DNA of 64,000 nucleotides from Elusimicrobiota bacterium (GTDB lineage Bacteria > Elusimicrobiota > Elusimicrobia > F11), in assembly GCA_003140895.1 (NCBI GenBank), contig PLLH01000118.1, positions 11,494-75,493 of the forward strand, read 5' to 3'. This document shows, one piece after another, positions 1,420 through 26,961 of the stretch. The notes beneath the pieces are model-generated. The model saw only the letters and a list, made by a program, of their open reading frames with translations. It did not search any database and was not told the origin of the DNA. Position 1 is the first letter of the stretch; each line of letters starts with the position of its first letter. The translations under genes were made by a program, and so were the position numbers.

Positions 1420-4400
1420 TTAAGCGGCTTTTAACGTTTGACTGGTTTCGTCGACGGAGCGTTGAACGTCCGGAGCCCAACGGGCCGAGAGAGCTTTGAG
1501 GAGTTCGTCGATCAAGAGATAAATCGTTTCTTTTTGGAGGAAGATTGAATTGGAGTCGAGGCCGTTCCAATTAAAGGCGGGCGCGTTTTGAGATGAAACG
1601 ATATTCATGGATCCATGCGCCTGAATGATTCGCGCGACGATCGGGAATTGAACCGCGTTTTCTCCGAAATACGTTTCCAATGTTTTGAGGCGCCATTCCC
1701 CCCCTTGCAAGGCGCCTGTTTGGTCCCCGTCCACAACGGAAACAAATGCCGGATTCACCAGCCCCCTTAACCGTTCCGCCAAAGCGTTTGTTTGAGCGAC
1801 CAGCGTTGTTGGCGTATGCGGGTCGAGGCTTTTCACGAGTTCTTCGAGGTGGGCTTCCAGGCTTGGATCGACGAAAATGAGAGTTCCACTGTTTTTCCTG
1901 AGCGGATCGGTTCGAAGAGTTTCCCCCAACCCCAGGTTGATCGGCGTCCCTTTCAGCAAGGACTCAAGCACAATTTGAGTGGGTGACATCGGAACCTTGC
2001 GGTTTGAGTTGTTAACCGCGCCGATTCTGTTCATGCAGGATAGTAGTGGTTTCACCAACAGGAATGATCCTACAGGCGTGAGGATGCCCCAAACTATATT
2101 GATCCCACTGAGCAATTTGGAATAAAGAATAGACAGAGAGCGTGCCAGCGGGTTGTAAACCCAATAGAGAGCGCGAGAAACGGAGGGTCGCGTTTCCACG
2201 CGGACCAATGGGATCTCCGGCAGGGAACTCGAGGCGTTCCAGTCAGGATCGAACAGCTTGTCATAGCTTGAATGCCAGTGGTGGTTGTGTCGCGCCCATT
2301 CAATAATTAAGTTGTCAATTTCTGAATAGTTGAGGTGAGGGCCGCCCTTTTGCGCCAAAAGGTCTCCTATGGCTCGCATATCATCCATGGAAAATGGGCT
2401 CATCCCCGGAAGAGGCTTGCCGGTTAATAAGTCTCGCCCATCCATTAGTCTGCCCGTGAGCAAGAGCACGTGATTGGAAAGATTTACGTGGTCTATAATC
2501 ACCGCACCTAAGCAAGCAAAGATGATTGCGCGCGTGAGGAGAGCTGGTTTGTCCTCGATCCCTTTTCCACTAAGCGCGGCAGATTGAGCCAGATGGATTG
2601 GGTTGTTGTAGTCTTTTGGCAACTGATCGGCATACGCGGCGACGCGATAGCCGTGGTCTCTCAATCCCTCTAATTCAAAAATGTGAGCACCTCCACGGAC
2701 AACGACCAACGCTCCAGAAGGATGTTCCCGCTTGTAGTCATCAATTTGATTCATCAATGCCTGGGCCCGTAATTCCAACATCTTGGCTTGGTCCCTTGAA
2801 AAAGATGCATATTCGTCCATGGCTTGATTTAAATGCCCTTGCCGGAAATGGTCAATGGCCAAGAAGTAATGAATTTCCGACAGGAAGTTGAATCGGACTG
2901 TATCTCCTGTTGGTATTTCTTCCAATGTTTGAATGTCACTTATGTTTTTTAAATGTTCATTCATTCGGGATATAAGCGGATTCTTCGGCTCGGCGGAATT
3001 CGGAGTGCGATTATACCAATCGACATATGCGCTCATTCCGGAGGCATTATTGCTGTCCTCAAGCAGGGCGATAAGATCTGGAAATTCAGCGTGGTCCTTC
3101 CATCTCTCGGCAAAATTAAGAAGGGCGTTAATTTCCGTATCCGTCAGCCCTGACTGACTTTGTTCCGCGCGAAACGACTCTCGATTATTTCGATATCTCG
3201 TTCCAAGAACATTCATATCGCGGTCAAAATCGTTGTAAGGACCTCCCCCACTCTCCTGCAAAACAGCGACTGACAGAGCCCCTCGTTTGCGGGCGTCTTT
3301 AATTGCTTCTTCAACGGAAGAGCTCATATGGTCATAGTCACCCTTTCTCCCGTGAGGTCCCAGTACGTAATAAATAAAGTCATGCTGTGGGTTCTGAATG
3401 AAGTAAGTGAGCGATTTCAGGAGAATAGCGATCACGATTGAAAAAATAACTGAACCCGCAATCCAAAAGCCGAGGGTTGGGTTAAGAAATGTAATGACGG
3501 GCCATGACAGAAGGGCGATGGCGGTTGTTAATTCGAAAACCGTGAACCCGTCGCGGGGGCCGGGCTTTTTGTGTGGCGCTTTCTGAATGAAGTTATCCAC
3601 TTCGTCTGTCAGTTTTTGTTGCCGGTTGTGGCGCTTGCGTTTTTCTTTCACGTCTTTCCCACCCATCCGAAGACTGACAATTGAATAGATGAGAACGAGG
3701 CCGAGCAGAATTCCCATGGTAACAACGGCCACAAGGGAGGCGTAAAAATTCGAAGCCAAACTGACGGGGGACCATCCCTGCTTAAAGTAATTGGTCAACC
3801 CGGCGGAGGCAACGATACTCAAGATAACAATCGTTTTGACGGGCCACGAAAGACTGTAGTCTGCTTTGGCGAACCGGTAGAGGAAATAAAAGAAAACAAA
3901 GGTCACAAACCACAGAATGTTGGTGGCGATGTTGATGGGTCCCATCATCCAGGAATTGGAGAGGGTCCCCACCATCAGAAACGTGGCTAGATAACCAATG
4001 AGGAGCAAGGTGGCGGAGAAGGAGAACGAATCTTTTTTCTGGTAGATGCGATCCAAGGACTTGCCGTGGCTATAGCGGCTGATCACCACTCCTAAGAGCA
4101 AATAGCCCAGGATACACAACGGGATGGAGATGATGAGCGTCAATAGGAAAGCCGGTAAGAGATCATTTCCTGCGACTCCAACGCCCCGGCCCAAATTGAG
4201 ACTCCTCTCAATCTCCCTCATGCTCCGGCCTTGCGCCCATAAATTCTGCCCTTGCGCCAAAATCCCAGTGATGGTTGCCCATAGTAGAAGAAGTTTTGTC
4301 GTTTGTCCGCCCAAGTGGGCGCCATCGGCGGGCGAATCGGCGGTTTCGGAAGGACGAGTGAAAACGACCAGGGTGTCAGCGTCTATTTGTTTATCGCGAT

Positions 4401-7400
4401 CAGCGTAGCCGCTAAAGCCTGGGAGAAAGCCACCGAATTTCCCCATGTGCCCAAAGGACAAAGCCCAGCGACCCTCTTTGCCGGCGAGTTCAGTTTGAAG
4501 CAGGGCCACCATGCGTTTGTCCTCCTCTAGGTTAAAGGAGGCGAGGAGTTCAGCCAATTCAATCCGCGCGGGTTTGCTTCTGGCCCCCTGGCCCTGATCG
4601 GACACGACGATTCGCCCCCCCGGTTTCATCAGCGCGGTCAAAACCCCGACGTCCGCCGGAGTCAACCCGATCGGATTCAATTTGCTCCTTGTTTCAAGAT
4701 GAAGGGTCCCGACGCTCCCCGGTTGAATCAGCGTTGGAAGCTGCGCTATGGGGCCAAAGTGAACCTTGACCTTGTCTTCAACGTCAATGACCAGGGCCGC
4801 TTTTTTAAGAAACCGCGCCCATTCCGGTTTGGTGGTAACAAAAACGACTTTGCGGGAACCCTTTTTGATTTCAGGCAAAGTGAAGAGGCCATGGAAGTTT
4901 GAACCGATGTCCAGATAAAGAGAGGCGGAGTTCCCCGGATTTTCGGCGTCATGAAGAAAAGGAGGAGTCTCCGCGGCATCCCACAATTTGTTCATATCTC
5001 GCCGGAGAAGGAGCGCGTCGCTCGTGGCGCGGTAATCCAACAGTTTGTTGGCGAAGGCCGGGTCGCTTTCGGCCCTGGAAAGAATGGCGGGAAAAACGCT
5101 CGGAATTTTGATATCGGGAGTGGATACCTTCGACACCCTTCCCTTCGTGGCCGCTTTTGCGGCGGCCCGAATTCGCGCCTGAAAAACGGTCTTGGCGTAC
5201 TTTTCAGAGAGCTCCGGTATCGATTCGAGAAGAGAAACGAAGAGATCTGAATAATTATGATCGGGGAAACGCAAGCTGAGATAATAATATTGGCTGGCCA
5301 CATCGGCGAAAGAATATCTCGTGCCAGAAGAGATCCCGCGGAGATCTTCTTCCGGGTCGGAGCGCCTTTCCATGAATTGCCTTTGTACTGATTTCCCCAT
5401 CATTGCCAGTTCGTGCTTGAAGTAGGCGTCTCTTTCTTGGGGGTCGGTGGGAATAGTGGAGGCCAACTCGTCCCATCCCTCCGGCTTTTCCAGGCAATCA
5501 AGAAAGACGTTGTATCGCCCGGCCAGAAACAGAACCAAATTCACCAAGGACTGAATGGTTTCCTTGTCCCTTTTCTTTGGAAAAAGAATGACAGTTTGCA
5601 CCCAATCCAACGCGTCATCCTCGAGAATGATTTTTTCCTCTTGAAGGAGTTTTCCTATTTCGTTCCCGATGTTTTCTGCCCATTGGGGCGGATTTCCTTT
5701 GATCTTTTTTGAAATTTCTTTGAGTTGATTCTTAAACTGAGGGAAATCGCCTTGGGCGCCGTCAATTTGGCGTTTGAATTCTTTAAGTGATAAAGAATTT
5801 TTCTCCGCGGAGTTGCTGTCGCTCAACCCCGGCAAGGCAACAGTCGCCCCCAGCATCAAAATTGACCCAATCCACAGACCCAGAAGCGGACTCATCCAGG
5901 TGATTCCGGCCCACGAAAAGAGGCCCATGGCCACGGTGAGTTCGTTCAACGCAAATCCGTTCCGTGAGCCGGGCTTGTTGGGTCGTTCCGATCTCATTGC
6001 CTTCGATTTATTAGCGTTAGCAAGATCGATACGCGACACCATGGGATAGACGCTCGTCTCAACCCCATCAATCGTTTTCTTTTTCGCATGGGGAGGCTGA
6101 GAAGCGTGCTGGAAACCTTCAGAGAGAAAGAACGGGAGATTTTCAATGGATCTCTCCGGGACGGCAAGGATGATTTTTTCATTATTTACATACCGGGCGG
6201 AGTTCTTAACGTTCTCCATCAGGCGGTGGCCCACGCCCAAGCGTCGGTAGTCCGGGTGAACGCCAATTTCCGCTATGGATTCTTTCCCCTCTCCATATCT
6301 AAACGCCACGGCCCCGATGATGTGTCCGGCAATCGTAGCGACCCGGGTCTCGATCTGGGCGTCATGAGCGGGGGAAAAGACGTCTCTTCCGTTGAACCAG
6401 GGACGATCGCTGCTGAACTCATCCCAGAGTATATCGGCCATATCTGATCCATTTGTTTCCATCATCGGTCTTATATGTAAAAAATCCTGGATCAATTTTT
6501 TACGAAAAGCGGGGTAATCGACAATTTGGGATTGTGTTAACTCAAGCGTCTTGTCGAGCAGGATTTTAGAGATTGAGTCGGTGATAAGCTCTGCTCGTCT
6601 CGGGAGCGCGTCAACGACTTCATAAGCAAGGTCTTCAATCGGAAGACGGGCAATCCGCGCGCGATCCGAGGTTGCGTTAAAGAAGGAGCGGCGTTCATAC
6701 TCATTCGGTTTGGGTCCCCAAAGGGAGGAGCGCTCTTTTCTGATGCCTTGTTCGTCATAGGACCAGTTGGGATGTTCTTTGAAAAATACCAGGCGCTCCA
6801 GAATTTGCCTTAACGAATGCGGGTCGAGATCAGGCCGAAGCGCGAATTTCGTCAATAACGTGAGAGAATTGGGGGTATTTGAACGCGCCAACACGTCTTC
6901 AAAGATTTTCCTTTTCCCTTCCTTGTCGGCGGATCTGAAACGCGTCATTTCCGGCGGTTCGGAGTGCTTTGTTATAGGGGTTCTGTCGCTATAATTCATG
7001 TTGGAAGCGTCAAATATCAGATGAGAGATGAGTGCCCAATAAGGCGAAGCGCCGAGGTAGGGAAGAACGGGATAGAGAGCAAAAATAAAAAGGCGAACAA
7101 GATTGATCCAGCGAAGCGGCGGCCCGCGGATGTCGGAGTTGGGGTGAACCCACTCAAAAACGATGTGAGCGGCAAAGAGCGGAATGAGCCACGCGAGCGC
7201 GGCAAAGATTCCATAATTGTTTGTGAGCCACGCCGCCAATGCCCCTTCCCCCGCCGCCCAGATCAGCGAAGCGGCTGAGATGAGCGTATGGGTTGTTTCC
7301 TCGCTGAACTTGGCTGAGATCCAGTCGTGAATCGCCGGAAGCGTGAGGATGAAGTAGATGAAAGATAAAGGGACTGTCCCTTGAGAACCGGACCCATTGA

Positions 7401-10400
7401 CACGGCCAAGCGTTCGTGTTTGGACGATGGTGATGGTCCAATGGCCAGGCTGCTGCGGGTCGGCTGTTATGACGACTTCGATGTCCCGGGGATTTTTTGC
7501 TTGAGCCTCCGTTTGCTGGCCGATCTCGCAGAGGGACCGGATCAAGCGATTCGCGTCGGGAAGTTTTAAAAATTCCTTCGTAACGGGAATGGTTTTTGTG
7601 CCGCCGGTTTTGGAGAGAACCGAGCAGCGTTTTTTATTTCCCGGAGATTTTTCGACAATCCTGTTGCGCGTCTTATCCCAGATGATCTGGGTTGGAGATC
7701 CGGCAAATCGGTTGTCATCTCCAACCAGCGATTCCCCCAAGCCCTGAACGGCCTCGATCACCAGATGGCTGGGTTCATTCAGGGCCACATCCGAAGTATG
7801 GATGACACATGAAAAATCCGCCGGTAAAGACGGAACAAGCCAGGCCGCCGGGAAAACGGTCGTTTCATTAATCTGATACTTTCGTCTATTCTCGAAGGCC
7901 TCGTCGGTCCAAACCGAGGCCATCACCTTTTTAATGGCGGGCCAGAAGGCGCGCTTTCCAACAATGTGCGGGATGGTGAGATAAATCCCCGCTCCAACAC
8001 CCGGATATTTTTCAAGATCCTGGGCGTTTGTTGAATCTCGGACAAAAGTCCCTTTTTCCCATTGGGGGTGTCCTTCCGCCTGTTCTAGCGTGGTCCAAAA
8101 CCGAGGGGCCAGGGCGTTTGTGTTTAATCCCATTATAAGACGTCTTATTTTTTTAAGTGTTTGAGCAGCCTGGAGTCCTTCGGCTCCGGTGAGTGATTGA
8201 ATCAGTTTTTTGAAATCAGCATAAACTCCGTTTTTCTTTAGAAGGTGGATAAAGGTTCTATAGGGGATTCCCACTCCTTTGGCGAACTCCGGGTGAATAC
8301 GGGGATCGGACAAGCGAGGGGAGTGGAGGGAGAGACGATTGACTTGAGCCGGTTTGTTGCCGACGACATTGGGCCGGACCATCTCGGGATCATTTGGGGC
8401 GAGGAAATAGTTGTCGCCTTCCAGCGTGACGGAGGGCAGTTGAACTTTGATGCGCCGGGGTTTTGAAATCCGGGGAAGATCGGATTTCGTCGCTTTTCGA
8501 ATGGAGGCGGACCGGTTTGTCACAGTGAGCACAACCATCTGGCCGTCGAGAGACCTTAGTAATTCCGGCCCGGGCCAAACGGCGAGAGGAATATTGTCGG
8601 CCAGAGCGCGCGCCCGGGCGTGTGAGGTTTTTCCCTCATTGATAAAAGTGACGATGCCGTTAAAACGGCCTTCGATATCGACGTAAGACTTTGGCAGAAA
8701 CTTCATGGCCACGATAGAGTTGCTTGGAACCCTCTTCAGGGCGGAAAGGGAAGGCTCTTCCCCCTTTATAATTTGAAGCTTCCCAACTCCTGTACCGGCG
8801 AATTCGGGGGTTGGTTTTTTAACCCGCTGGGGAGCGTAAGAGGTCGGTTGAGCGAATATTTGTGAAGCCTGTTTCCCCTCTGGTTGGAGTTTTTTTGAGA
8901 GGGTATTGATCTCCTCCATTGTTTCCCGCAATTTTTCTGCATAATCATTTGGGCAGTAGCGTTTCTGTAAAAAATCAGCTATTTGTTCGCCGAGTTTCGT
9001 TAAGAGAGTTTCATCGTCTATGGCCGAAAGAATTATTTTGCTGTTGTTTGGGTTAAGATAGCCGAATAAACCGGCAATCCCGCTTAAATTGTACTGAACC
9101 AGGTAGGTGTCTCCCTTAAATGTCATGGGCGCGTTTCTATTTTTGAGAGCCAATCCGCGTTTCACAATTGCGCCGAACAAGTCCATCTCCATCTTCCCGG
9201 ACTGAACTGTCGATTCCCATCGTTCGTGATTTCCCTTGACGCAGGCGAGGATCGTCGCCGCCAGATCCGGGTACCAGTAATATATGGCCCGCAAGGTGTT
9301 GGCGGCCGAGTCAAAAACGGGGTGATTGAGAATAAAAATATCGCCGATGCCCTGGATACTGTTTCCTTCTTTTGAGAATGGGAGAGTAGACTCGAAAATG
9401 TGCTCAACTAATTCTTTCTCGTAGTCCGGCTTTGGCCATTTTGGATTCCAATGTTTCGGGCCGGTTTTTTTCGGATTTGAAAGGGAAAGCTCCGTGCGGC
9501 CAAGATTGGCGAGCAATAGAATTTGGAAGAACTTCCTTAGCGTTTGGAGAACAGCGGGCGGCGCGCGGCCTGGGTAGTTTTCCCCCCACTGAACCAGCCC
9601 GTCGTTGGTGTAGTGGGCGAGAACAAGAAGGACGCTGGCGATCGAAAGTGGAAGCCATGGGTTCCAATCAATGGCGAGGCCGAGAACGCTCAAAATCCCG
9701 AAGGAGATGAAAAACACCTTTCGGAGCTGGTTGACGGCCGCGGCGCGGTTCTGAGAAATTAACTTTAATTCCTCAGCACTTAGCGTTTCCCGCTCCCCTC
9801 GCGTCACGGTATGAAGCCAGACGAAAAATGATTTATTGACCCACAAGCCGAGGATGAACAGAGAAGTTGACGCGACGGCGACAAGAACAGATGACAGTAA
9901 CGATAGAGACGTGGGGCCATAAACGCCGAGTGACCAAAGTAACCCCGTAAGAGGAAGGCCCAGTGGGATCACGCCGAAGACAAGGGACTCCAGGCCCGCC
10001 AGATAGTGGCGGTAGGGCCCCCATTTGAACAGGCTGAGTTCGCTCTCCGGCATCGACGTTGCCGATAGTTGGGCCATGACCGCGGCATGCTTAGCCTTAG
10101 TGATGGCCTGCTGGCGGTCGGCGAAATTGTCGAGCAGCGCTTGTTCTCCCATGAGTGTTGGGTGGGCCGCCACTTCTTCAAGAAGGGTATCAATCGACTC
10201 TGGGATGGCCGTCTCCCTTAAAATCTCAAGGATGGATTCGCCCATGCTTTTGTCATCAATCATCTCAGCCATAAAGCCTATACCCTGTACACCAGCCGTA
10301 TTCCCAATATGGTGATCGACAAGAGGAGGCCTTTCAAAGACGACTTTCCCTGCTCTCACTCGTTCTGTGGCGTAGGACATCATTGCATTGAGATCGTCGG

Positions 10401-13400
10401 TGATTGCTTTGGCTCTGGGAAAAACCCGCTTTACGCCAGCCAAATCCCCTTTGATGGCGGATAAGCGTGTTTCCTTAATTATCTCGCGCAGTTCTCTCAA
10501 ATAGGGAATCATCAAAGAGAAGAATTCGGCAGAATCTGCGATTACCTCATCTGGAACCACTCGTTTTTGAGGAGTCTCATCTTCCTGGTTCCCCCAATGA
10601 GGAAAGATGGGTTGGTAAGCGTGGAATCGTTGGGTTTTAAGAAGACGGTTCAGAACCCGCGACGTGTTCATCCACAGCAGCCAGCGGTGAATAGATCCAA
10701 GCCCTTTATCTTTCTCTTCAATCTTATTCCAATCAATAAGAACGTCGAGCAGGGGAATGTTTTGGCCTCCGATCTCGATTTGAGCGTCCTTATGAATATC
10801 CTCCAAAAGCTTGCTTAGGATTTCGATCAGTTTTGTGTTGGGATCGACACCCGGGTCGCGGACATATCTGTTGTAGAGGGCTCGTCTTTCTGAGGGCGTC
10901 CACTGCGTCCAACCACTCTTGAAGTTCTGCCTTCGGTTTGGTGGGAAGAACAGAAGAAGGATGAAGTCGTTTATGATTTCTCGGATCCTAACCGTTATTG
11001 GATCGGCGGGATGATCCCCCTCAAGGACGTGTATGGTTTCTTCCAGGAGTGACTTGTGCCAGTACTTGTAGTGGGGATCGACGATGACGATCCTTTTCGC
11101 ATCGGGATCAATACCGAGCGCCTCAAGAACTTGCCGTGGGGAAACATCCAATCTTTGCGCGATCACTTGAAGGTGGTCGTTGGTCAAATGGGTTCCCCAC
11201 GCGTGGGTCTTTCTCTTCCAGCCCTCATTTTCAATCGGGGAGTGCGTCCCGCCCCCGACGAATTTGCCGATGTAGAAAAGTTGATCCTCGGATCCCCAAG
11301 GCATCAATAATCCGTAGGCTGGATCGCCGACCTGAGGAAAAAGAACGGCCACCCCTTCGTTTTGCAGAATCCGGTGGAGGTCCTCGGCTGGGGGTAATCC
11401 CGGGATGGGAGAGCTTAAGGAGATTTCCCTTTGTTGTCGCCGGCTTTTCTCATTTTTCTTGTCCAACAAAGTGTCCCCTTTAGAATCGGTACGGGTGCCT
11501 TTCACAACGTATGCGGGATCCTTGACGAGCACGGTCGCGATGGCCTGCTCAAACCCTGTTCTCCGGGCCAGTACCCCCCCGATTTCATAGGCTTTCTTGT
11601 GTTTTTCAGGATCCCTATTTAATAACTCTAAAACCACGTTTGCTAAATACTCACCGTATTCATAACTAAAACCGGGTTCCAATTTAAACCGCCCGGTGAA
11701 CCTCGAAAACCAGCTTTCGTGCCGCTTGGCCAACTTTCGAAACCCCTTCTCCCAGGAGGAAGGCGGAAATTCAGCGATGATTTCACGGACGGTCTTAGCA
11801 CTTGATCCGCCATAGTGGCTGGTTGATATCCCCAATTCAGCGGCTCGTATGGTTCGAAAATAACTGGCCGCAAAAGCGTTCGAGCGGTCTCCCATGGCTA
11901 GGATTGGAAATACAACGTGGGTGAGCTCATGGAAAATATTCGCACGCAAGGAGGACTCATCAGGGAACCGCCACTTGAAAACCAATACTTTTTTACTGAA
12001 GTTCAGCTTGACTCCGTTGGCGCCCCGAAGGGTTTGAACCGTCGCTTTAGCTCCAAACAACAAAGACCAAAAACCAATCATCTTCAAAATCGGGATGAAA
12101 TCCCAGCCGATCAAAGAAAACGGCAGAAAAACGATGGCGAGCGGAACAAACCAGAATAGAAACTGAGGCACAATTAATCTTCGAAAGGCTTGCCACGGAC
12201 TTGAAGCGACTTCAACTGTCCTTCTTAACGGTTTTTCTAATCTCCTCCCTTTTGAACTTTCGGCATCCCCAGGAAAACCCGTCACCTCAATAAAGTGGCC
12301 CACTTCCTCCCGGACTATTCTTTCGTCGGCGGAAATTTGGGACGCCGGGTTCCTTGCGGCCATAACGTGAGCGTCAAATGGCATGTGGAAAGGAAGAGCA
12401 AAGTAGGGTGAGAATCCGAAACGAGGGAAAGCAATATAGAGAGCAAAAATAAAAAGGCGAACGAGATTGATCCATCGGAGCGGCGGCCCGCGGATGTCGG
12501 AGTTGGGGTGAACCCACTCAAAAACGATATGAGCGGCAAAGAGCGGCATGAGCCACGCGAGCGCGGCAAAGATTCCATAATTGTTTGTGAGCCACGCCGC
12601 CAATGCCCCTTCCCCCGCCGCCCAGATCAGCGAAGCGGTTGAGATGAGCGTATGGGTTGTTTCCTCGCTGAATTTGGCTGAGATCCAGTCGTGAATCGAC
12701 GGAAGCGTGAGGATAAGGTAGATGAAAGACAAGGGAGTTGTCCCTTGAGAACCTGACCCATTTATAGACTTGATACGTCTTTCGACTCGCTCCTTGGTTC
12801 CCAGCTTTGTCACGATACCCTTGGATTGTTGATTAATCGTGTTTTCAGGAGGGTGTGAAATATTCTGGCGGAAGGAATTAATTTCCAATATGCGGCTCCG
12901 AATGCGTCTAAACAATTCATCTTTCGAATCGCTTGAAGATAAGGTTTGATGAAGATCGGATCTTAACCGTTCCAGAGCCGGGCCATATTCGTCCTTGCGC
13001 AGTCCGCCACGGGCAATATACCTGGCTCTCATATCATGGAATCGGTTCATCTCCCCCATGAGTCTTTCGATAAAGAGATACCTTTCTACGGGCTTGACAT
13101 AGGGTCGTCTAAAGAATTCCAGCATAGACTCCACTTTATCTTGGACTGTTTCATGGACAAGTTTATGGAACGAGATTAAGATTTCTCTTCCAGATGCGGG
13201 ATGGATAAGCAGAGGTTTTCTGGTTTGGATAAGTGTTCTTTCTTGAACCGTAATCTGAAGATCATTCGTTGCGCTTATTAACTTCTGCTTCAGCCTTTCT
13301 ATGAACTGAAGTTCCAAATCACTGTCCAGAAAATGCGAAAATTGAATATCCAAGTCATCCACCGCTGAGAATGGGACGTAACCCTCTTCATCCTGGAGGT

Positions 13401-15687
13401 AAAATGCGCTCCCATAGGCTTGCGCCAAAACCCGTTGGCCATCGGGAGCCACCATCTCATCGGCGGTTTCCTGAATCATTTTCCGAAGAAACCCGAAATT
13501 GATTTCGTAATTTTTGAATCCCTTCTGTCTCGCAAAAACGGGATTCTTTATCTCAGCCAAGGAAAACCCCGAGAAACTATCGTTATAGAATAGTGACGCG
13601 GAGGTCTCTCTCCCCGATATCCGGCCCGAGCCGGGTCCGACATCGGGTTGGGAAGAATCCCTCATCATCGCCATCCCCACCACAAACGGCGCCATTGAAA
13701 GGAACGCGACTATTTCCTTTGCGTGGATCTTCATCCAATCCCAACCGAGGGCCATCCATTCGGGGTAAAGCAGGCTGACGAGGGCGCTTGTTGTGAGGAG
13801 GGCTGAGAGAGTGAGAGGGGTGCGGATGCTCTTCATCCCCCATTTTTCATCAATGGCAATCGTTAAAGATTTGGATGTGCGATTTGAGAGGGCCGTGATG
13901 TGGATAAGACCCGCTTTGGCGAGGTGGATTGTTGCGCGGGAGGCGATCCTCATTCTTCTTAAAACTTTCTCAACGTATTGTTGCGCGAACGGAATGCCGA
14001 TGACTTGTTTCATGACGCCTCGAGCGGCGAAGAAAAGGCCGGCTTTGGCGAACGCTGGGTTGGACACGGGCTCTTGGGCCAGGAAGAGTTTTTCCCCTTC
14101 GAAGAGCTTTTCAAGCGGGGTTTTCTCCTGAGTGAAGACGCTCAGATAGGTTGCCCCCGTTGATGAGTCCACTTTGGTCACTTTGGGAACAACGGTGATG
14201 GTGGTGAATCCGGCGTCCTGAGCCAGACGGTTGATCCCGCTTGAGTGATAGCCGCCGGTTACAAGAACCGCCACGTTGGTTTTATTCTCCCCCATGGTCC
14301 TTAAAAGGTTATTCGCCATCAAGGTGTCGCGCGCGTCGGCTTCGGAGTAAAATTTTTCAAACGGCGAAAAATTTGGTTGATGGTCTATGGACTGATACTC
14401 TTTCCACTCTTCTTTCGTGAGTCCAAAGTCGAGAAGTTTTCCAACAAGATACAGCCGCCGAGACTCTGCGACATCTTTTTTCTCGTCGTCCGTTCGGATC
14501 AACGACGCGTAGGTCGCGTCTTCTAAGTTGCTGATTTCTTGATGTAGCTTCTCCGCATCAATGGAGTCGGAGAGAAGGACATACTGGAGGTAATCGAACA
14601 TCGCTTTGTAATACGAAAGGTTGACGCCTTGTTTCTCGCACATGGTTTTTAAGGCTTGGTAGAAATCAGCGTGGTTGAGTTGGCCGAGACGGAACGCCAA
14701 CGTCAAATTAACGAGGGGTTGCGTTTGGTCGGCCGGCAGCTTCCTGAGGAGTTCCTCCAAAAGTAGAGAACGCTCCCGTTCAACGCGCGCGAAATCCAGC
14801 GACTTTTCAAGTTGGAGGGCGCGAAGGAAGTTGTTGAAATTGTGCCCGGGCACTTTTTTGTTATTGAACGAATTCAATAACTGCGCGTAGTCACCAAGTG
14901 AGAGGGTCCCCCTTTGGTACGCCTGGACGTTTCGGTCAAACGCTTTTAAATCGGGATTAAACCGGGTTTCTTTTTCTGCCGCCAGCGTTTGTTCAAGTTT
15001 TGCCAGTTTTTCTTTTTGGGTGGCGGTCTGCGGCGCGGATTCGCGGACGGCGTTGACGTTCGCTCCGTAGCGCGCGGCATCATCAATCCCGACGTACGGT
15101 GGCGGGGTGAGTTCGGAGACGAGAGCCGTATGAATCGGGCCTGAAATGGCGTTTTCGGCAAGCAGATGATCGGCTACCTCGCGGATGGTTTCTTTGTGAG
15201 GAAATTCTCTGAGGAGCGAAAGATCGAGCGGGGCGAAGGCTCCTTCGAGAGCCACCAGGTCCACCCGTTGTTTATTGATGAGCGTTTGGATTACGGCGGC
15301 GATGTTTTTCTGGGCTTCCCCATTCATGTGGATGTCTTGAACATGAATGATGATTTTCTGCTGAGAGCGGGACGCGGGCCTTGAAACAGAACGGATGCTC
15401 CCAAATTGAAGCGGGATGGCGCTTAATACATTTTTCAGGGAGAGGTCTTGCACATCTTTTGCCCATTTGTTGAAGTGGACATTCGCGGATAACGTGTCGG
15501 CAAAATTTGTTGGGAGCGAGGAATGGGTGAATCCCGCCACGGCGGGTAAACTCGCCAATTGGACGGATTTTTTTCGTTCCGTCCAGAAATCGGTTTCTGC
15601 TTTGTAGGCGAAGAGACAATTGGTGGAGAGAAGGGCCATGGCCAAGGCCATTGTGAGGCATCTTGAAAAGAAAGACGTATGCTTCAA
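1420..15687 (-). CDS. Giant (4755 aa) mosaic multidomain membrane protein. In order: signal peptide; Tiki/TraB/ChaN-like domain; transmembrane helices; repeated TM module; HExxH motif; phosphohistidine swivel plus PPDK_N nucleotide-binding (dikinase) module; second copy of the TM module; GNAT acetyltransferase domain; further TM clusters; second Tiki/TraB-like domain.
   Basis: A continuous 14,268-nt ORF without stops. TTG start at 15687 follows GGGAGA. N-terminus MKHTSFFSRCLTMALAMALLSTNCLFA is a signal peptide. Motifs seen in the translation: IIIHVQDIHMNGEAQ ... VLVTGGYHSSGINRL (ChaN/TraB-like, residues ~110-510); IFHELTHVVF (HExxH, residue 1253); IVTFINEGKTSHARARALADNIPLAVW (PEP-utilizer swivel, His ~2356); VVGNKPAQVNRL ... 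SVWTDEAFENRRKY ... VIEAVQGLGESLVGDD (PPDK_N, ~2440-2680); IIGAVAFRYGEGKESIAEIGVHPDYRRLGVGHRLM (GNAT, ~3115-3160); ALVVVRGGAHIFELEGL (second TraB-like GGxH motif, ~4330). There are multiple hydrophobic stretches. Confidence 0.8.
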   Translation of the reverse strand: MKHTSFFSRCLTMALAMALLSTNCLFAYKAETDFWTERKKSVQLASLPAVAGFTHSSLPTNFADTLSANVHFNKWAKDVQDLSLKNVLSAIPLQFGSIRSVSRPASRSQQKIIIHVQDIHMNGEAQKNIAAVIQTLINKQRVDLVALEGAFAPLDLSLLREFPHKETIREVADHLLAENAISGPIHTALVSELTPPPYVGIDDAARYGANVNAVRESAPQTATQKEKLAKLEQTLAAEKETRFNPDLKAFDRNVQAYQRGTLSLGDYAQLLNSFNNKKVPGHNFNNFLRALQLEKSLDFARVERERSLLLEELLRKLPADQTQPLVNLTLAFRLGQLNHADFYQALKTMCEKQGVNLSYYKAMFDYLQYVLLSDSIDAEKLHQEISNLEDATYASLIRTDDEKKDVAESRRLYLVGKLLDFGLTKEEWKEYQSIDHQPNFSPFEKFYSEADARDTLMANNLLRTMGENKTNVAVLVTGGYHSSGINRLAQDAGFTTITVVPKVTKVDSSTGATYLSVFTQEKTPLEKLFEGEKLFLAQEPVSNPAFAKAGLFFAARGVMKQVIGIPFAQQYVEKVLRRMRIASRATIHLAKAGLIHITALSNRTSKSLTIAIDEKWGMKSIRTPLTLSALLTTSALVSLLYPEWMALGWDWMKIHAKEIVAFLSMAPFVVGMAMMRDSSQPDVGPGSGRISGRETSASLFYNDSFSGFSLAEIKNPVFARQKGFKNYEINFGFLRKMIQETADEMVAPDGQRVLAQAYGSAFYLQDEEGYVPFSAVDDLDIQFSHFLDSDLELQFIERLKQKLISATNDLQITVQERTLIQTRKPLLIHPASGREILISFHKLVHETVQDKVESMLEFFRRPYVKPVERYLFIERLMGEMNRFHDMRARYIARGGLRKDEYGPALERLRSDLHQTLSSSDSKDELFRRIRSRILEINSFRQNISHPPENTINQQSKGIVTKLGTKERVERRIKSINGSGSQGTTPLSFIYLILTLPSIHDWISAKFSEETTHTLISTASLIWAAGEGALAAWLTNNYGIFAALAWLMPLFAAHIVFEWVHPNSDIRGPPLRWINLVRLFIFALYIAFPRFGFSPYFALPFHMPFDAHVMAARNPASQISADERIVREEVGHFIEVTGFPGDAESSKGRRLEKPLRRTVEVASSPWQAFRRLIVPQFLFWFVPLAIVFLPFSLIGWDFIPILKMIGFWSLLFGAKATVQTLRGANGVKLNFSKKVLVFKWRFPDESSLRANIFHELTHVVFPILAMGDRSNAFAASYFRTIRAAELGISTSHYGGSSAKTVREIIAEFPPSSWEKGFRKLAKRHESWFSRFTGRFKLEPGFSYEYGEYLANVVLELLNRDPEKHKKAYEIGGVLARRTGFEQAIATVLVKDPAYVVKGTRTDSKGDTLLDKKNEKSRRQQREISLSSPIPGLPPAEDLHRILQNEGVAVLFPQVGDPAYGLLMPWGSEDQLFYIGKFVGGGTHSPIENEGWKRKTHAWGTHLTNDHLQVIAQRLDVSPRQVLEALGIDPDAKRIVIVDPHYKYWHKSLLEETIHVLEGDHPADPITVRIREIINDFILLLFFPPNRRQNFKSGWTQWTPSERRALYNRYVRDPGVDPNTKLIEILSKLLEDIHKDAQIEIGGQNIPLLDVLIDWNKIEEKDKGLGSIHRWLLWMNTSRVLNRLLKTQRFHAYQPIFPHWGNQEDETPQKRVVPDEVIADSAEFFSLMIPYLRELREIIKETRLSAIKGDLAGVKRVFPRAKAITDDLNAMMSYATERVRAGKVVFERPPLVDHHIGNTAGVQGIGFMAEMIDDKSMGESILEILRETAIPESIDTLLEEVAAHPTLMGEQALLDNFADRQQAITKAKHAAVMAQLSATSMPESELSLFKWGPYRHYLAGLESLVFGVIPLGLPLTGLLWSLGVYGPTSLSLLSSVLVAVASTSLFILGLWVNKSFFVWLHTVTRGERETLSAEELKLISQNRAAAVNQLRKVFFISFGILSVLGLAIDWNPWLPLSIASVLLVLAHYTNDGLVQWGENYPGRAPPAVLQTLRKFFQILLLANLGRTELSLSNPKKTGPKHWNPKWPKPDYEKELVEHIFESTLPFSKEGNSIQGIGDIFILNHPVFDSAANTLRAIYYWYPDLAATILACVKGNHERWESTVQSGKMEMDLFGAIVKRGLALKNRNAPMTFKGDTYLVQYNLSGIAGLFGYLNPNNSKIILSAIDDETLLTKLGEQIADFLQKRYCPNDYAEKLRETMEEINTLSKKLQPEGKQASQIFAQPTSYAPQRVKKPTPEFAGTGVGKLQIIKGEEPSLSALKRVPSNSIVAMKFLPKSYVDIEGRFNGIVTFINEGKTSHARARALADNIPLAVWPGPELLRSLDGQMVVLTVTNRSASIRKATKSDLPRISKPRRIKVQLPSVTLEGDNYFLAPNDPEMVRPNVVGNKPAQVNRLSLHSPRLSDPRIHPEFAKGVGIPYRTFIHLLKKNGVYADFKKLIQSLTGAEGLQAAQTLKKIRRLIMGLNTNALAPRFWTTLEQAEGHPQWEKGTFVRDSTNAQDLEKYPGVGAGIYLTIPHIVGKRAFWPAIKKVMASVWTDEAFENRRKYQINETTVFPAAWLVPSLPADFSCVIHTSDVALNEPSHLVIEAVQGLGESLVGDDNRFAGSPTQIIWDKTRNRIVEKSPGNKKRCSVLSKTGGTKTIPVTKEFLKLPDANRLIRSLCEIGQQTEAQAKNPRDIEVVITADPQQPGHWTITIVQTRTLGRVNGSGSQGTVPLSFIYFILTLPAIHDWISAKFSEETTHTLISAASLIWAAGEGALAAWLTNNYGIFAALAWLIPLFAAHIVFEWVHPNSDIRGPPLRWINLVRLFIFALYPVLPYLGASPYWALISHLIFDASNMNYSDRTPITKHSEPPEMTRFRSADKEGKRKIFEDVLARSNTPNSLTLLTKFALRPDLDPHSLRQILERLVFFKEHPNWSYDEQGIRKERSSLWGPKPNEYERRSFFNATSDRARIARLPIEDLAYEVVDALPRRAELITDSISKILLDKTLELTQSQIVDYPAFRKKLIQDFLHIRPMMETNGSDMADILWDEFSSDRPWFNGRDVFSPAHDAQIETRVATIAGHIIGAVAFRYGEGKESIAEIGVHPDYRRLGVGHRLMENVKNSARYVNNEKIILAVPERSIENLPFFLSEGFQHASQPPHAKKKTIDGVETSVYPMVSRIDLANANKSKAMRSERPNKPGSRNGFALNELTVAMGLFSWAGITWMSPLLGLWIGSILMLGATVALPGLSDSNSAEKNSLSLKEFKRQIDGAQGDFPQFKNQLKEISKKIKGNPPQWAENIGNEIGKLLQEEKIILEDDALDWVQTVILFPKKRDKETIQSLVNLVLFLAGRYNVFLDCLEKPEGWDELASTIPTDPQERDAYFKHELAMMGKSVQRQFMERRSDPEEDLRGISSGTRYSFADVASQYYYLSLRFPDHNYSDLFVSLLESIPELSEKYAKTVFQARIRAAAKAATKGRVSKVSTPDIKIPSVFPAILSRAESDPAFANKLLDYRATSDALLLRRDMNKLWDAAETPPFLHDAENPGNSASLYLDIGSNFHGLFTLPEIKKGSRKVVFVTTKPEWARFLKKAALVIDVEDKVKVHFGPIAQLPTLIQPGSVGTLHLETRSKLNPIGLTPADVGVLTALMKPGGRIVVSDQGQGARSKPARIELAELLASFNLEEDKRMVALLQTELAGKEGRWALSFGHMGKFGGFLPGFSGYADRDKQIDADTLVVFTRPSETADSPADGAHLGGQTTKLLLLWATITGILAQGQNLWAQGRSMREIERSLNLGRGVGVAGNDLLPAFLLTLIISIPLCILGYLLLGVVISRYSHGKSLDRIYQKKDSFSFSATLLLIGYLATFLMVGTLSNSWMMGPINIATNILWFVTFVFFYFLYRFAKADYSLSWPVKTIVILSIVASAGLTNYFKQGWSPVSLASNFYASLVAVVTMGILLGLVLIYSIVSLRMGGKDVKEKRKRHNRQQKLTDEVDNFIQKAPHKKPGPRDGFTVFELTTAIALLSWPVITFLNPTLGFWIAGSVIFSIVIAILLKSLTYFIQNPQHDFIYYVLGPHGRKGDYDHMSSSVEEAIKDARKRGALSVAVLQESGGGPYNDFDRDMNVLGTRYRNNRESFRAEQSQSGLTDTEINALLNFAERWKDHAEFPDLIALLEDSNNASGMSAYVDWYNRTPNSAEPKNPLISRMNEHLKNISDIQTLEEIPTGDTVRFNFLSEIHYFLAIDHFRQGHLNQAMDEYASFSRDQAKMLELRAQALMNQIDDYKREHPSGALVVVRGGAHIFELEGLRDHGYRVAAYADQLPKDYNNPIHLAQSAALSGKGIEDKPALLTRAIIFACLGAVIIDHVNLSNHVLLLTGRLMDGRDLLTGKPLPGMSPFSMDDMRAIGDLLAQKGGPHLNYSEIDNLIIEWARHNHHWHSSYDKLFDPDWNASSSLPEIPLVRVETRPSVSRALYWVYNPLARSLSILYSKLLSGINIVWGILTPVGSFLLVKPLLSCMNRIGAVNNSNRKVPMSPTQIVLESLLKGTPINLGLGETLRTDPLRKNSGTLIFVDPSLEAHLEELVKSLDPHTPTTLVAQTNALAERLRGLVNPAFVSVVDGDQTGALQGGEWRLKTLETYFGENAVQFPIVARIIQAHGSMNIVSSQNAPAFNWNGLDSNSIFLQKETIYLLIDELLKALSARWAPDVQRSVDETSQTLKAA
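7072..7398 (-). repeat. Copy 2 of the 327-bp intragenic direct repeat (residues 2764-2872). It lies exactly 5364 bp (1788 codons) from copy 1, in the same frame.
   Basis: Near-identical DNA and peptide to 12436..12762. The alternative-frame ORFs 7017..7214 and 12315..12578 (both beginning MESLPRSRGS...) mirror the repeat. Confidence 0.9.
12436..12762 (-). repeat. Copy 1 of a 327-bp intragenic direct repeat (about 95% nucleotide identity) encoding a ~109-aa multi-TM module. It corresponds to residues 976-1084 of the giant protein.
   Basis: The DNA string atagagagcaaaaataaaaaggcgaac...gtcccttgagaacc recurs at 7072. The encoded peptide NGSGSQGTTPLSFIYLILTLPSIHDWISAKFSEETTHTLIS...RWINLVRLFIFALY is nearly identical in both copies. 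Confidence 0.9.
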
Positions 15688-24412: not shown

Positions 24413-25678
24413 TTAGTTTGTTTTCGAGTCCATGAGTTTTAAAAATCGATCGAACAGATGCCGTGCGTCGTGCGGGCCGGCGGAGGCTTCGGGATGATAC
24501 TGAACGGAAAAGAGAGGCAAGTCCCGGTGCCGGAGTCCCGCGATGGAAAAGTCGTTTAGATTGACGTGCGTGCAAATGATTTCTTTGTTTCCTTTGAGCG
24601 CCCACGTGTCGTCCTTTTGTTTTTCTCCTTCGACGGCGAATCCGTGGTTCTGGGTCGTGATGTCCACGCGTCCGGTTTCCACGTCTTTGATGGGATGGTT
24701 GGCCCCGTGGTGGCCGAATTTGAGTTTGAAGGTTTTGCCGCCCAGCGCCAAGCCCAACATCTGATGGCCGAGGCAGATTCCAAAAATCGCGAACCCTTTT
24801 TCCCCCTTCTTTTGACGGGTGAGGTTGTAGTCGATCAAATCTTTGATGGTGCCGATGCCGGTCGTGACGGCGGCGGGATCGCCCGGGCCGTTTGAAATCA
24901 TGATGCCGTCGGGTTTCAAATTCAAAATCTCGGAGGCCGGTGTGTTTGCCGGAACGACCGTGACGTCGCAGTTCCGATCCACGAGACAACGGAGGATGTT
25001 TTGTTTCACGCCGAAATCCATCACCACGACTTTCCGGCGGGAATATTTCGTTGGCGTCGTATTTTTGCCGGAGTCGATCTTCTCCCTCCACTCTCCCGAC
25101 CCGTGAGTCCATTCGTACGGCTTATCCGCCGTCACAACGTGAGTCAAATCCTGGCCTTCCAGGCTTGGAATGGCCTTTGCCTTTTTGATGAGGGTTTTCA
25201 CATCTGTTCCGTCCGTTGAAATAAGACCGTTCACGGAGCCTAATTCTCGTAGGTGCTTCGTCAGGGCGCGCACGTCAACGCCGGTCATCCCCGCCACGCC
25301 CGCCTTGGATAAATAGGCGTCCAGCGTTTCGTTGGCCCTCCAATTAGAGGAGATGTTGCTCAGTTCTTGAACAACGAACCCGGAGAGAAAAATCCGGCGC
25401 GATTCCATGTCTTCAGGGTTGATTCCGTAATTTCCGATATGAGAGGCCGTCATGGCGACGATCTGCCCTTGATACGACGGATCCGTCAAAATTTCCTGAT
25501 ACCCGCTTAGCGAGGTGTTAAAAACCACTTCACCGGTTGCAGGCCGACTGTCTTTCTTTCCGCCAGGAATGGCACCGCCGGGAATGGCGCCGCCGGGAAT
25601 GGCGCCGAAGCTCCATCCGGTGAAGACGCGTCCGGTGGCTAAGACGAGAACCGCTTTGGCGCGTTTTACTGAAGCCAC
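24413..25678 (-). CDS. carA: Carbamoyl-phosphate synthase small subunit (glutamine amidotransferase).
   Basis: GEVVFNTSLSGYQEILTDPSYQGQIV and a class-I GATase C-terminus (GICLGHQ). Contains a 3x GAIPG insertion. Confidence 0.95.
   Translation of the reverse strand: MASVKRAKAVLVLATGRVFTGWSFGAIPGGAIPGGAIPGGKKDSRPATGEVVFNTSLSGYQEILTDPSYQGQIVAMTASHIGNYGINPEDMESRRIFLSGFVVQELSNISSNWRANETLDAYLSKAGVAGMTGVDVRALTKHLRELGSVNGLISTDGTDVKTLIKKAKAIPSLEGQDLTHVVTADKPYEWTHGSGEWREKIDSGKNTTPTKYSRRKVVVMDFGVKQNILRCLVDRNCDVTVVPANTPASEILNLKPDGIMISNGPGDPAAVTTGIGTIKDLIDYNLTRQKKGEKGFAIFGICLGHQMLGLALGGKTFKLKFGHHGANHPIKDVETGRVDITTQNHGFAVEGEKQKDDTWALKGNKEIICTHVNLNDFSIAGLRHRDLPLFSVQYHPEASAGPHDARHLFDRFLKLMDSKTN
25562..25606 (-). 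repeat. In-frame 15-bp x 3 tandem repeat inside carA. It encodes GAIPG x3 inserted in an N-terminal loop.
   Basis: ccaggaatggcaccg / ccgggaatggcgccg / ccgggaatggcgccg. Confidence 0.85.
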
Positions 25679-26961
25679 GGGAAGTCCTTATCAAGGATGA
25701 GGGTTTCTTCGCGGCTTTTTCCCATGGAAACCAAGGCGCATTTGGCGTCGACGGCTTTTTCGATTTCTTTCACGAATCGCCGGGCTTCCAACGGGAAGGC
25801 TGAGAAATCCTTCAGCTCTCGCAGATTGCCTTTGAATCCGCGGAAGTTTTTGTAAATCGGAACGCTATTCGCTTGCAGCGTCCGGCTGACGGGGAAGTTG
25901 CTCAGCGTTTTGCTCCCCACTTTATAACCGACGCAGATGCGGATGGGATCGAGCCCTTCCAAAACGTCCAATTTTGTCAGCGCGAAGCGTTTAATCCCAT
26001 TGATTCGGAAGGCGTGTTTGACGACCAATGCGTCAAACCAGCCGCACCGCCGACGCCGGCCGGTTGTGGCGCCGAACTCCTGTCCTTTGGATTGAAGATA
26101 GTTGCCTTCGGCGCTGTTCAACTCCGTCGGGAACGGGCCGTCTCCCACGCGCGTCGTGTAAGCTTTGATGACGCCCAAAACCTCATCGATGTAGCGGGGG
26201 CCCACTCCGGCGCCGGAACACGCTCCTCCCGCGATCGGGTTAGACGATGTGACGTACGGGTAGGTCCCGAAGTCCACATCCAACATCGTTCCCTGCGCGC
26301 TTTCGAAGAGCATGCGTTGATCTTTCTTGATGGCGTTACTGAGAAGAATTGTGGTGTCGGTGGCGAATTGCTCCATGAAATCCCGGAGTTCCCGGTAGTC
26401 CTTCATGATCTCCTGCCGAATTTGCTTGATGGGTTTCACTTGCGAGAGAAGCGGTTCTTTCTCCTTCAGATTTTGATCGAGCAGGGTTTGGAAGAGCTCC
26501 GGTTCCAGATAATCCGCGACGCGGATGCCGGTTCGTCCCACTTTGTCGGAATAGGCGGGGCCGATTCCTTTGCGGGTTGTTCCGATGGCGCCGGATTTGG
26601 AGGCGGTTTCCCGGAGCGTATCCAAGTATTTGTGATAGGGAAGGATCACATGGGCGGCCAGGGACACGTAGAGGCGTCCGCGCACCTTGATTTTTCGATT
26701 TTCAAAAAATTCCACCTCTTCTTTGAAGGCGGCCGGATCGATGACCAGGCCGTTTCCCAGGACGCATTTTTTCCCGGGTTCTAAAATACCGGACGGAAGT
26801 AAGTGAAGCACGAAGTGCTTTCCGTCGAAAACAACCGTATGGCCGGCGTTGTTTCCGCCCTGATATCGAACGATGTAATCCGAATTTTTTCCGATGAGAT
26901 GAACGATTTTCCCTTTTCCTTCATCTCCCCATTGCGCTCCGATGACGACTAAAGATGGCAT
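25666..26961 (-). CDS. purA: Adenylosuccinate synthetase.
   Basis: MPSLVVIGAQWGDEGKGKIVHLIG ... GNNAGHTV ... typical PurA motifs. 431 aa. Overlaps carA by 13 nt. Confidence 0.95.
   Translation of the reverse strand: MPSLVVIGAQWGDEGKGKIVHLIGKNSDYIVRYQGGNNAGHTVVFDGKHFVLHLLPSGILEPGKKCVLGNGLVIDPAAFKEEVEFFENRKIKVRGRLYVSLAAHVILPYHKYLDTLRETASKSGAIGTTRKGIGPAYSDKVGRTGIRVADYLEPELFQTLLDQNLKEKEPLLSQVKPIKQIRQEIMKDYRELRDFMEQFATDTTILLSNAIKKDQRMLFESAQGTMLDVDFGTYPYVTSSNPIAGGACSGAGVGPRYIDEVLGVIKAYTTRVGDGPFPTELNSAEGNYLQSKGQEFGATTGRRRRCGWFDALVVKHAFRINGIKRFALTKLDVLEGLDPIRICVGYKVGSKTLSNFPVSRTLQANSVPIYKNFRGFKGNLRELKDFSAFPLEARRFVKEIEKAVDAKCALVSMGKSREETLILDKDFPWLQ

Follow-up and report, generated by a model that had tools for sequence, protein, structure and literature searches.

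A ChaN/Tiki-type head domain and a divergent, probably Tiki-fold module in giant proteins of Elusimicrobiota

Introduction

Do the two ends of one giant bacterial protein carry related domains, and do those domains form a pair? The question is raised by a 64,000-nucleotide stretch of contig PLLH01000118.1, from an Elusimicrobiota bacterium (GenBank assembly GCA_003140895.1). We refer to this whole stretch as the window. On its minus strand, at 1420..15687 (stop codon included), is a single open reading frame (ORF) with a TTG start that encodes 4,755 amino acids. (Residue i corresponds to window position 15687-3(i-1), and all of the features of this protein that we describe are on the minus strand.) The original prediction was that a duplicated pair of Tiki/TraB/ChaN-like segments sits at opposite ends of the giant protein and brackets a membrane machine.

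The motifs behind this prediction are all present, and in the one ORF. The N-terminal segment contains IIIHVQDIH (residues 112-120, 15328..15354), ALEGA (at residue 146), and the distal motif VLVTGGYHS (residues 474-482, 14242..14268). The C-terminal segment contains another distal motif, VVVRGGAHI (residues 4328-4336, 2680..2706). We call these segments domain 1 (residues 80-510, 14158..15450) and domain 2 (residues 4098-4472, 2272..3396).

The Tiki/TraB/ChaN/Ere superfamily is small and its mechanism is debated: it may or may not depend on metals, and its members have been viewed as proteases, esterases, or haem binders. The superfamily is defined by a parallel β-sheet core that is flanked by helices, by two histidines and two glutamates at the ends of the strands, and by a conserved basic residue (PMC6254334). 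Overall, we think it fairly probable that domain 1 is a ChaN/Tiki-type head, likely a hydrolase, and that domain 2 is a separate, divergent, and rare module that probably has the same fold.

Results

Domain 1 is the ChaN/Tiki-type head of a family of large proteins

We consider it established, at the level of predicted fold and motifs, that domain 1 belongs to the Tiki/ChaN/TraB/erythromycin-esterase superfamily. A homology search with domain 1 found 37 proteins; all of the named ones are from Elusimicrobia, and six have a precomputed match to PF04187 (Cofac_haem_bdg, the family of ChaN). When the 29 aligned homologues (alignment A1) were scanned singly, 17 of them matched PF04187 at E <= 0.01 (best E = 4.9e-7). 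The window's own domain 1 matches PF04187 with E = 0.0016, and this match covers the C-terminal part, with the Arg...GGxH motif. A search of PDB profiles with alignment A1 gave only chance matches to coiled coils.

The AlphaFold2 model of domain 1 has a mean predicted local distance difference test (pLDDT) of 83.2 and a predicted TM-score (pTM) of 0.76. The model has an α/β fold with a parallel β-sheet core, and the catalytic-type residues and a basic residue are in place. Asp118-x-His120 (15334..15336 and 15328..15330) directly follows strand 1, and Glu148 (15244..15246) follows strand 2. Arg453 (14329..14331) lies on the helix that precedes the last catalytic strand, which in turn is followed by Gly-Gly-x-His481 (His481 at 14245..14247). 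In the numbering of the modelled segment, these candidate active-site residues follow strands 33-39, 65-68, and 393-399. D39, H41, E69, R374, G399, G400, and H402 (in the same numbering) are invariant among close homologues (alignment A4).

The model is most similar to ChaN (PDB:2g5g; score 10.3). The next matches are two erythromycin-esterase-like proteins known as Bcr (2rad, 10.1; 2qgm, 9.8), a TraB-family subunit (8bqs_DQ, 9.8), the erythromycin esterase EreC (6xcq, 9.4), RRSP (5w6l, 9.2), and HopBA1 (5t09, 9.2). Together, the profile, the predicted fold, and the catalytic residues bear out the prediction that the N-terminal segment is a Tiki/ChaN-superfamily domain.

Two features set this family apart. 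One is an all-helical insertion of about 265 residues (residues 204-467, 14287..15078, as judged from the secondary structure of the model and from alignment A1), which lies between the N-terminal β-α-β unit and the C-terminal Arg-helix and GGxH strand. The insertion is conserved throughout the family. The other is a stretch just after the domain (residues 514-540, 14068..14148; YLSVFTQEKTPLEKLFEGEKLFL), which alignment A1 shows to be very conserved (YLSVFTQEKTPLEKLF-GEKLFL) and which the model leaves unstructured, with low confidence. This stretch was the search pattern by which the domain 1 family was recovered.

Domain 2 is probably a divergent relative

Domain 2 is much harder to place. 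Word-indexed homology searches with domain 2, either alone or as a profile (A2), found nothing. An exhaustive HMMER search of 1.84 billion representative sequences did find relatives, and these occur only inside other very large proteins. The homologues are in five proteins, with 22-25% identity to domain 2 over about 400 residues in this search and 18-23% among the aligned copies: P0042 (a fragment), P0045 (with two tandem copies), P0046 (5,930 amino acids), P0049 (7,376 amino acids), and P0051 (5,879 amino acids). When genome contigs were scanned with the alignment of domain 2, no locus could be confirmed.

The second segment had been placed at residues ~4120-4360. Those limits were too narrow for the conserved module, which spans residues 4098-4472, and its N-terminal strand, His4112, and Glu4145 (in VAVLQE) had gone unremarked. 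Four residues are candidates for an active site: His4112 (3352..3354), Glu4145 (3253..3255), Arg4307 (2767..2769), and His4335 (2683..2685). Glu4145 (Glu46 of the segment) is invariant in all seven copies of domain 2. His4112, Arg4307, and G-x-x-His4335 (His13, Arg208, and GxxH236 of the segment) are present in six of the seven. The exception is P0051, in which both histidines and the arginine are gone together, as expected if these residues form one site.

The AlphaFold2 model of domain 2 was unexpectedly confident (pLDDT 83, pTM 0.83). The order of its elements, β-α-β-(helices)-β-(long helices)-β-α-β, is the same as in domain 1, and the four candidate residues lie at strand ends or on a helix equivalent to those that hold the site residues of domain 1. 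The spacing from the arginine to the histidine is 28 in both domains. Among PDB structures, Foldseek ranked ChaN at the top for domain 2, both by probability (0.33) and by TM-scores, although no match was significant. One of the seven copies, from P0046, matches Pfam's TraB_PrgY_gumN (PF01963) with E = 0.069, at the corresponding N-terminal motif. Each of these signals is weak, yet all of them point to the same clan and at matching positions. We think it quite probable that domain 2 has the Tiki fold, in a divergent form. As for the prediction that the C-terminal segment is Tiki-like, the order of strands and helices and the His/Glu/Arg/His set agree with it, and similarity to Pfam models or a significant Foldseek match did not materialize. 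At the level of profiles, 17 of 29 homologues of domain 1 match a family of the clan and the window's own copy falls short of the curated threshold; for domain 2, the predicted similarity failed.

When profile A2 was compared to PDB profiles, cytochrome P450 BM3 was matched (E = 0.008-0.05). We judged this to be a chance match to a short motif, LNGxDxxTGEPL. The corresponding part of domain 2 is in its C-terminal helical extension, which carries R-(I/L)-(L/M)-(N/D)-G-x-D-L-x-T-G at residues ~4410-4425 (LTGRLMDGRDLLTGKPLPG, 2380..2420). The stretch of P450 BM3 that it weakly matches is MLNGKDPETGEPL.

The two domains are not recent duplicates

The distal motifs of the two domains are more than chance would give. 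In all 4,755 residues there are exactly two places where GGxH comes after a hydrophobic strand, as compared to an average of 0.015 in composition-preserving shuffles, and none of 2,000 shuffles reached two. R-x24-GGxH, a pattern that we picked post hoc, is likewise found at these two sites and nowhere else, while 0.027 are expected from shuffles. These counts exceed what coincidental GGxH motifs would give. (The GGxH at residues 1479-1482, in FVGGGTHS, was considered as a third such motif. We set it aside, as it lacks an Arg-helix in front and is not supported by homologues.)

A comparison of the full domain 1 and domain 2 profiles with hhalign gave a single alignment, which places Arg...GGxH on Arg...GGxH (E = 0.03). 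With the C-terminal lobes alone, the alignment improves to E = 6.5e-5 and a probability of 64%. With the N-terminal lobes, glutamate aligns with glutamate, insignificantly (E = 0.18).

Comparing the giant protein to itself gave nothing between domains 1 and 2. The same comparison readily detected two repeats: residues 970-1126 with 2758-2916 (76% identity) and residues 3238-3330 with 4041-4133 (29-44%). Because true repeats are found and similarity between the domains is not, domains 1 and 2 are not recent duplicates. If they are related, they belong to different families of one superfamily. The predicted duplicated pair is therefore better described as two separate families whose only recognizable similarity in sequence is Arg...GGxH.

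Domain 1 is a common head and domain 2 is a rare module

A hidden Markov model (HMM) of domain 1 has matches at the N-terminus of seven proteins: the window protein, P0041, P0047, P0050, P0046, P0049, and P0051. We used domain 1 to scan one genome per GTDB species and found at least 223 loci. We examined the best 80 of these together with the locus of P0018, or 81 loci, which cover up to ~3,900 residues of each ORF. The best 80 are all from metagenome-assembled genomes (MAGs) of Elusimicrobiota, often with 6-9 copies per genome and sometimes in tandem. Domain 1 is present in 89 ORFs of the 81 loci, and it always starts within the first ~90 residues. The ORFs that end inside the locus have 741 to 3,746 amino acids, and many others leave the locus at over 3,900 amino acids. 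Within the sequence covered, domain 2 was found in none of the 89 ORFs. Similarly, when the giant protein was compared to the P0018 locus with tblastn, domain 1 alone was in common.

What the big proteins of this large paralogous family in Elusimicrobiota share is thus domain 1 as their head, and domain 2 is an optional module that is rarely present. The location of domain 2 is not fixed: it lies at residue 3850 of 5930 in P0046, at 6509 of 7376 in P0049, and at 4766 of 5879 in P0051, and it is tandemly doubled in P0045. P0041, P0047, and P0050 have the head and a conserved C-terminal tail without domain 2. Conversely, domain 1 starts all four of the domain 2 proteins with an intact N-terminus. 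This co-occurrence may reflect only that domain 2 is confined to these giants. (P0045 is labelled as partial in its NCBI record. P0042 is one of a series of ORFs that lie on one strand, overlap in part, and begin at the end of a contig with 2.8x coverage; it is therefore probably part of a giant gene with frameshifts.) Because domain 2 is missing from the covered parts of the domain 1 ORFs that we examined, a pair that brackets a membrane machine is not supported as a conserved design; domain 1 heads hundreds of large Elusimicrobiota proteins, and the parts of them that we examined are free of domain 2.

The giant genes with domain 1 heads are a lineage-specific expansion, and we found no description of them in the literature that we searched. 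In particular, papers on giant genes and papers on Elusimicrobia made no mention of this domain family. Single MAGs with 6-9 copies of domain 1 include Ca. Obscuribacterium magneticum DUR003, F1F2.bin.33, and PL23a_bin.39. In loci L024, L030, L048, L068, L069, and L077, two or three large ORFs with domain 1 heads follow each other on the same strand. (L048 also has a domain 1 ORF of 432 amino acids, which overlaps the adjacent ORF and seems to be one piece of a gene that is split.)

Other features of the giant protein

Besides domains 1 and 2, the giant protein has about 20 hydrophobic segments as well as ATP-grasp and GNAT domains. It begins with a hydrophobic leader (residues 1-28, 15604..15687) that, as read from the sequence, resembles a signal peptide. 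The homologues have the same leader, followed by A-x-x-x-E-x-N-x-W-x-x-R. The ATP-grasp domain (residues 2468-2762, 7402..8286) is of the PEP-synthase/rifampin-phosphotransferase type (Pfam PPDK_N, E = 1.9e-20; PDB:5hv6, E = 3.9e-8). The GNAT acetyltransferase domain (residues 3083-3197, 6097..6441) is similar to YpeA (E = 2e-5).

The C-terminal tail of about 180 residues (residues 4576-4755, 1423..1962) was identified by homologue searches and ends in -AA. It is also found at the extreme C-terminus of P0041, P0047, and P0050 and of short fragments, and it had no matches in the 81 domain 1 loci that we scanned. The P0046 and P0049 chains likewise end in -AA. This tail may be a signal for sorting, secretion, or degradation.

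Directly upstream of domain 2 is a hydrophobic hairpin (residues 4041-4092, 3412..3567), with a paralogous copy at residues 3238-3289 (5821..5976). The hairpin before domain 2 is preceded by a stretch rich in Lys and Arg and begins with KPGPRDGFTVFELT, which resembles the prepilin motif G|FxxxE. In both copies, a basic stretch is followed by KPG(P/S)R(D/N)GF(T/A)xxELT (GFTVFE and GFALNE are present in the two copies) and then by ~44 hydrophobic residues. As a lead, the hairpin resembles a prepilin cleavage/methylation signal that is placed inside a protein. The scores against the prepilin-type models are below threshold (TIGR02532, 9.1 bits with a cut-off of 16.3, E = 1.2; PF07963, E = 0.66), and the hydrophobic stretch exceeds the length of a pilin helix. 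The hydrophobic part of the hairpin segments also matches NF007848, again below threshold (E = 3e-4).

The more similar of the two internal repeats is a recent duplication of a ~157-residue module, at residues 970-1126 (12310..12780) and 2758-2916 (6940..7416). It starts with NGSGSQGT and includes several hydrophobic helices, and its second copy comes directly after the ATP-grasp domain. There is also a lone HExxH motif (FHELTHVVF; residues 1253-1257, 11917..11931), which lies after a transmembrane segment in a stretch that is otherwise unannotated and has no Pfam support. Judging from the motif, it may be the site of a zincin-like metalloprotease.

Some of the relatives have repeated short motifs. 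RSE[AVL]R occurs 14 times each in P0046 and P0051, and [AS]SLG occurs 11 times in P0049, at spacings of 150-900 residues and at the borders of modules. In P0046, the first copy is after domain 1, at about residue 600, and domain 2 (3850-4228) sits between the copies at 3838 and 4259. By eye, the strings of modules in these relatives include motifs that one expects in cytosolic enzymes (a Fic-like HDGNKR in P0046, for example). The repeated motifs look like polyprotein linkers or cleavage motifs. The window protein has none of them.

We rejected the idea that the giant ORF is an assembly artefact. Its C-terminal 2,428 residues are identical in an independent database entry (P0038), and purA from the window (25666..26961) recurs unchanged on five contigs of ENA and Logan assemblies, among them the 169-kb scaffold WOOD18-1. 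The giant ORF is flanked by the usual kinds of chromosomal gene, namely those for an AcrB-type pump and an outer-membrane efflux protein as well as carAB and purA. Since the best relatives of its N-terminal part are all from MAGs of Elusimicrobia or Elusimicrobiota, its host is almost certainly an uncultured bacterium of this phylum.

Discussion

How might such a protein work? We picture a giant multi-pass membrane protein with independent modules strung along one chain. ChaN, Tiki, and TraB/PrgY are extracytoplasmic. The leader of the giant protein resembles a Sec signal, and export of domain 1 is probable. Since its catalytic set is complete, domain 1 is most likely an exported hydrolase, either a peptidase or an esterase. 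By analogy with the erythromycin esterases and RRSP, the His-Glu pair would activate water and the arginine would hold the substrate (PMC6254334). Domain 2, which follows about 4,000 residues later, most likely shares this fold and has a site made of His, Glu, Arg, and His, and hence we infer that its hydrolytic chemistry would be similar. By the positive-inside rule, with the Lys/Arg-rich stretch and the ~44-residue hairpin before it, domain 2 may face the cytoplasm. The ATP-grasp and GNAT modules are presumably cytoplasmic as well, as they need cytoplasmic cofactors. The originally proposed roles, metal-dependent hydrolysis or the handling of haem, may apply to either domain.

Several observations weigh against this account. 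For domain 1, ChaN, its best structural match, is a haem-binding protein and, to our knowledge, not an enzyme; an aspartate takes the place of the first glutamate of the 2His/2Glu set; and the window's sequence scores only 18.9 bits against PF04187, which is below Pfam's gathering threshold (27.7). For domain 2, a Pfam scan of the window's sequence gave no match, Foldseek found no PDB structure at E <= 0.001, the search of PDB profiles with A2 yielded just the short chance match to P450 BM3, and the model was built from only seven sequences. Also, the acidic residue two positions before the first histidine is missing (the sequence is Gly-Pro-His). As to the link between the domains, hhalign gave the full profiles a probability of 1.7%, and a deliberately mismatched control (the C-terminal lobe of one against the N-terminal lobe of the other) still reached E = 0.0026.

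Those results for domain 2, from Pfam, Foldseek, and hhalign with its control, are what one would expect if only domain 1 were Tiki-type and domain 2 were an unrelated three-layer α/β domain (flavodoxin- or Rossmann-like) whose motifs arose by convergence or chance. We view this as unlikely, albeit worth keeping in mind. It would have to explain why four conserved polar residues are at the catalytic positions of Tiki proteins, with identical spacing between the arginine and the histidine; why both histidines and the arginine disappeared jointly from P0051; and why the best hhalign, Pfam, and Foldseek signals, weak as they are, share one clan and matching positions. Flavodoxin- and Rossmann-like folds also have different signature motifs. 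We are somewhat more doubtful that domain 1 (and perhaps domain 2 as well) has no catalytic role and instead binds a ligand or haem as ChaN does, serving as a periplasmic binding or anchoring head. There is precedent for this, as some Tiki-fold proteins, such as the C1/C2 domains of PMT, are inactive (PMC6254334). But proteins that have lost catalysis, such as PMT, lack the Asp/Glu-x-His, Glu, Arg, and His set (PMC6254334), while this set is invariant across the domain 1 family. Also, the enzymes EreC, RRSP, and Bcr135/136 score nearly as high as ChaN does.

It is very improbable that domains 1 and 2 are products of an internal duplication and work as a pair on either side of a membrane-embedded middle that they serve. 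They are in one ORF near its opposite ends, all four of the domain 2 proteins with intact N-termini start with domain 1, and other internal duplications in the giant protein are genuine. However, the self-comparison that finds those duplications, even at 29-44% identity, finds no similarity between the two domains, and hhalign aligns one motif only. The lack of domain 2 in the 89 ORFs, over the up to ~3,900 residues covered, and in the giants with both head and tail, its variable position, and its tandem copies in P0045 all argue against a pair, and the related giants are largely strings of soluble enzymes and not membrane machines. A bolder proposal gives domain 1 the role of maturation or autoprocessing protease in a class of undescribed bacterial giant "polyproteins" that are cut apart after synthesis. 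These would be chains of 2,000 to over 7,000 residues with a signal peptide and autonomous enzyme modules. The borders between modules would be the repeated linkers, or in the window protein the membrane or prepilin-like segments, and domain 2 would be a second, module-specific protease of the Tiki type. The basis for this proposal is the repeated linker motifs, which are found in relatives only, and we consider it improbable.

We return to the reading that we prefer, with a ChaN/Tiki-type head and a separate, rare module. How does it compare to known systems? ChaN (PF04187; PDB:2g5g), a member of the Tiki clan, is a lipoprotein of ~250 amino acids, whereas domain 1 is the head of proteins of 700 to over 4,700 amino acids, carries the ~265-residue helical insertion, and in the window's copy is below the Pfam threshold. 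The erythromycin esterases (EreC, 6xcq; Bcr135 and Bcr136, 2rad and 2qgm) are just 9-14% identical to domain 1, which has no match to Pfam's erythromycin-esterase family; they are stand-alone resistance enzymes, while domain 1 is within a giant membrane protein. TIKI, TraB, PrgY, and GumN (PF01963; TraB, 8bqs_DQ) and RRSP (5w6l) have in common with domain 1, and probably with domain 2, the superfamily fold and an active site with two histidines, a glutamate, and an arginine, and the sole contact with PF01963 is the marginal match of one domain 2 homologue. In domain 2, the first motif is Gly-x-His and lacks an acidic residue, and we take it to resemble the "GTxH" type of TraB and Tiki. RRSP, a MARTX effector, is likewise a Tiki-fold module in a multi-effector bacterial protein of several thousand residues. 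But in the giant protein we found no RTX repeats, CPD, or other MARTX features, and its host is from a free-living, environmental lineage of Elusimicrobiota.

For now, this is an advance in annotation and not a new mechanism. It would add two unannotated branches to the Tiki superfamily, in a new architecture of giant proteins. One branch is found across Elusimicrobiota in several copies per genome, as a ChaN-like, invariant head on very large and otherwise hypervariable proteins. The other is a much more divergent module, and giant proteins are the only place where it is seen. Should the head be an active hydrolase, it would be a pointer to the function of an unannotated class of giant genes in an uncultured phylum, and these functions might include processing, delivery, or the remodelling of the cell surface.

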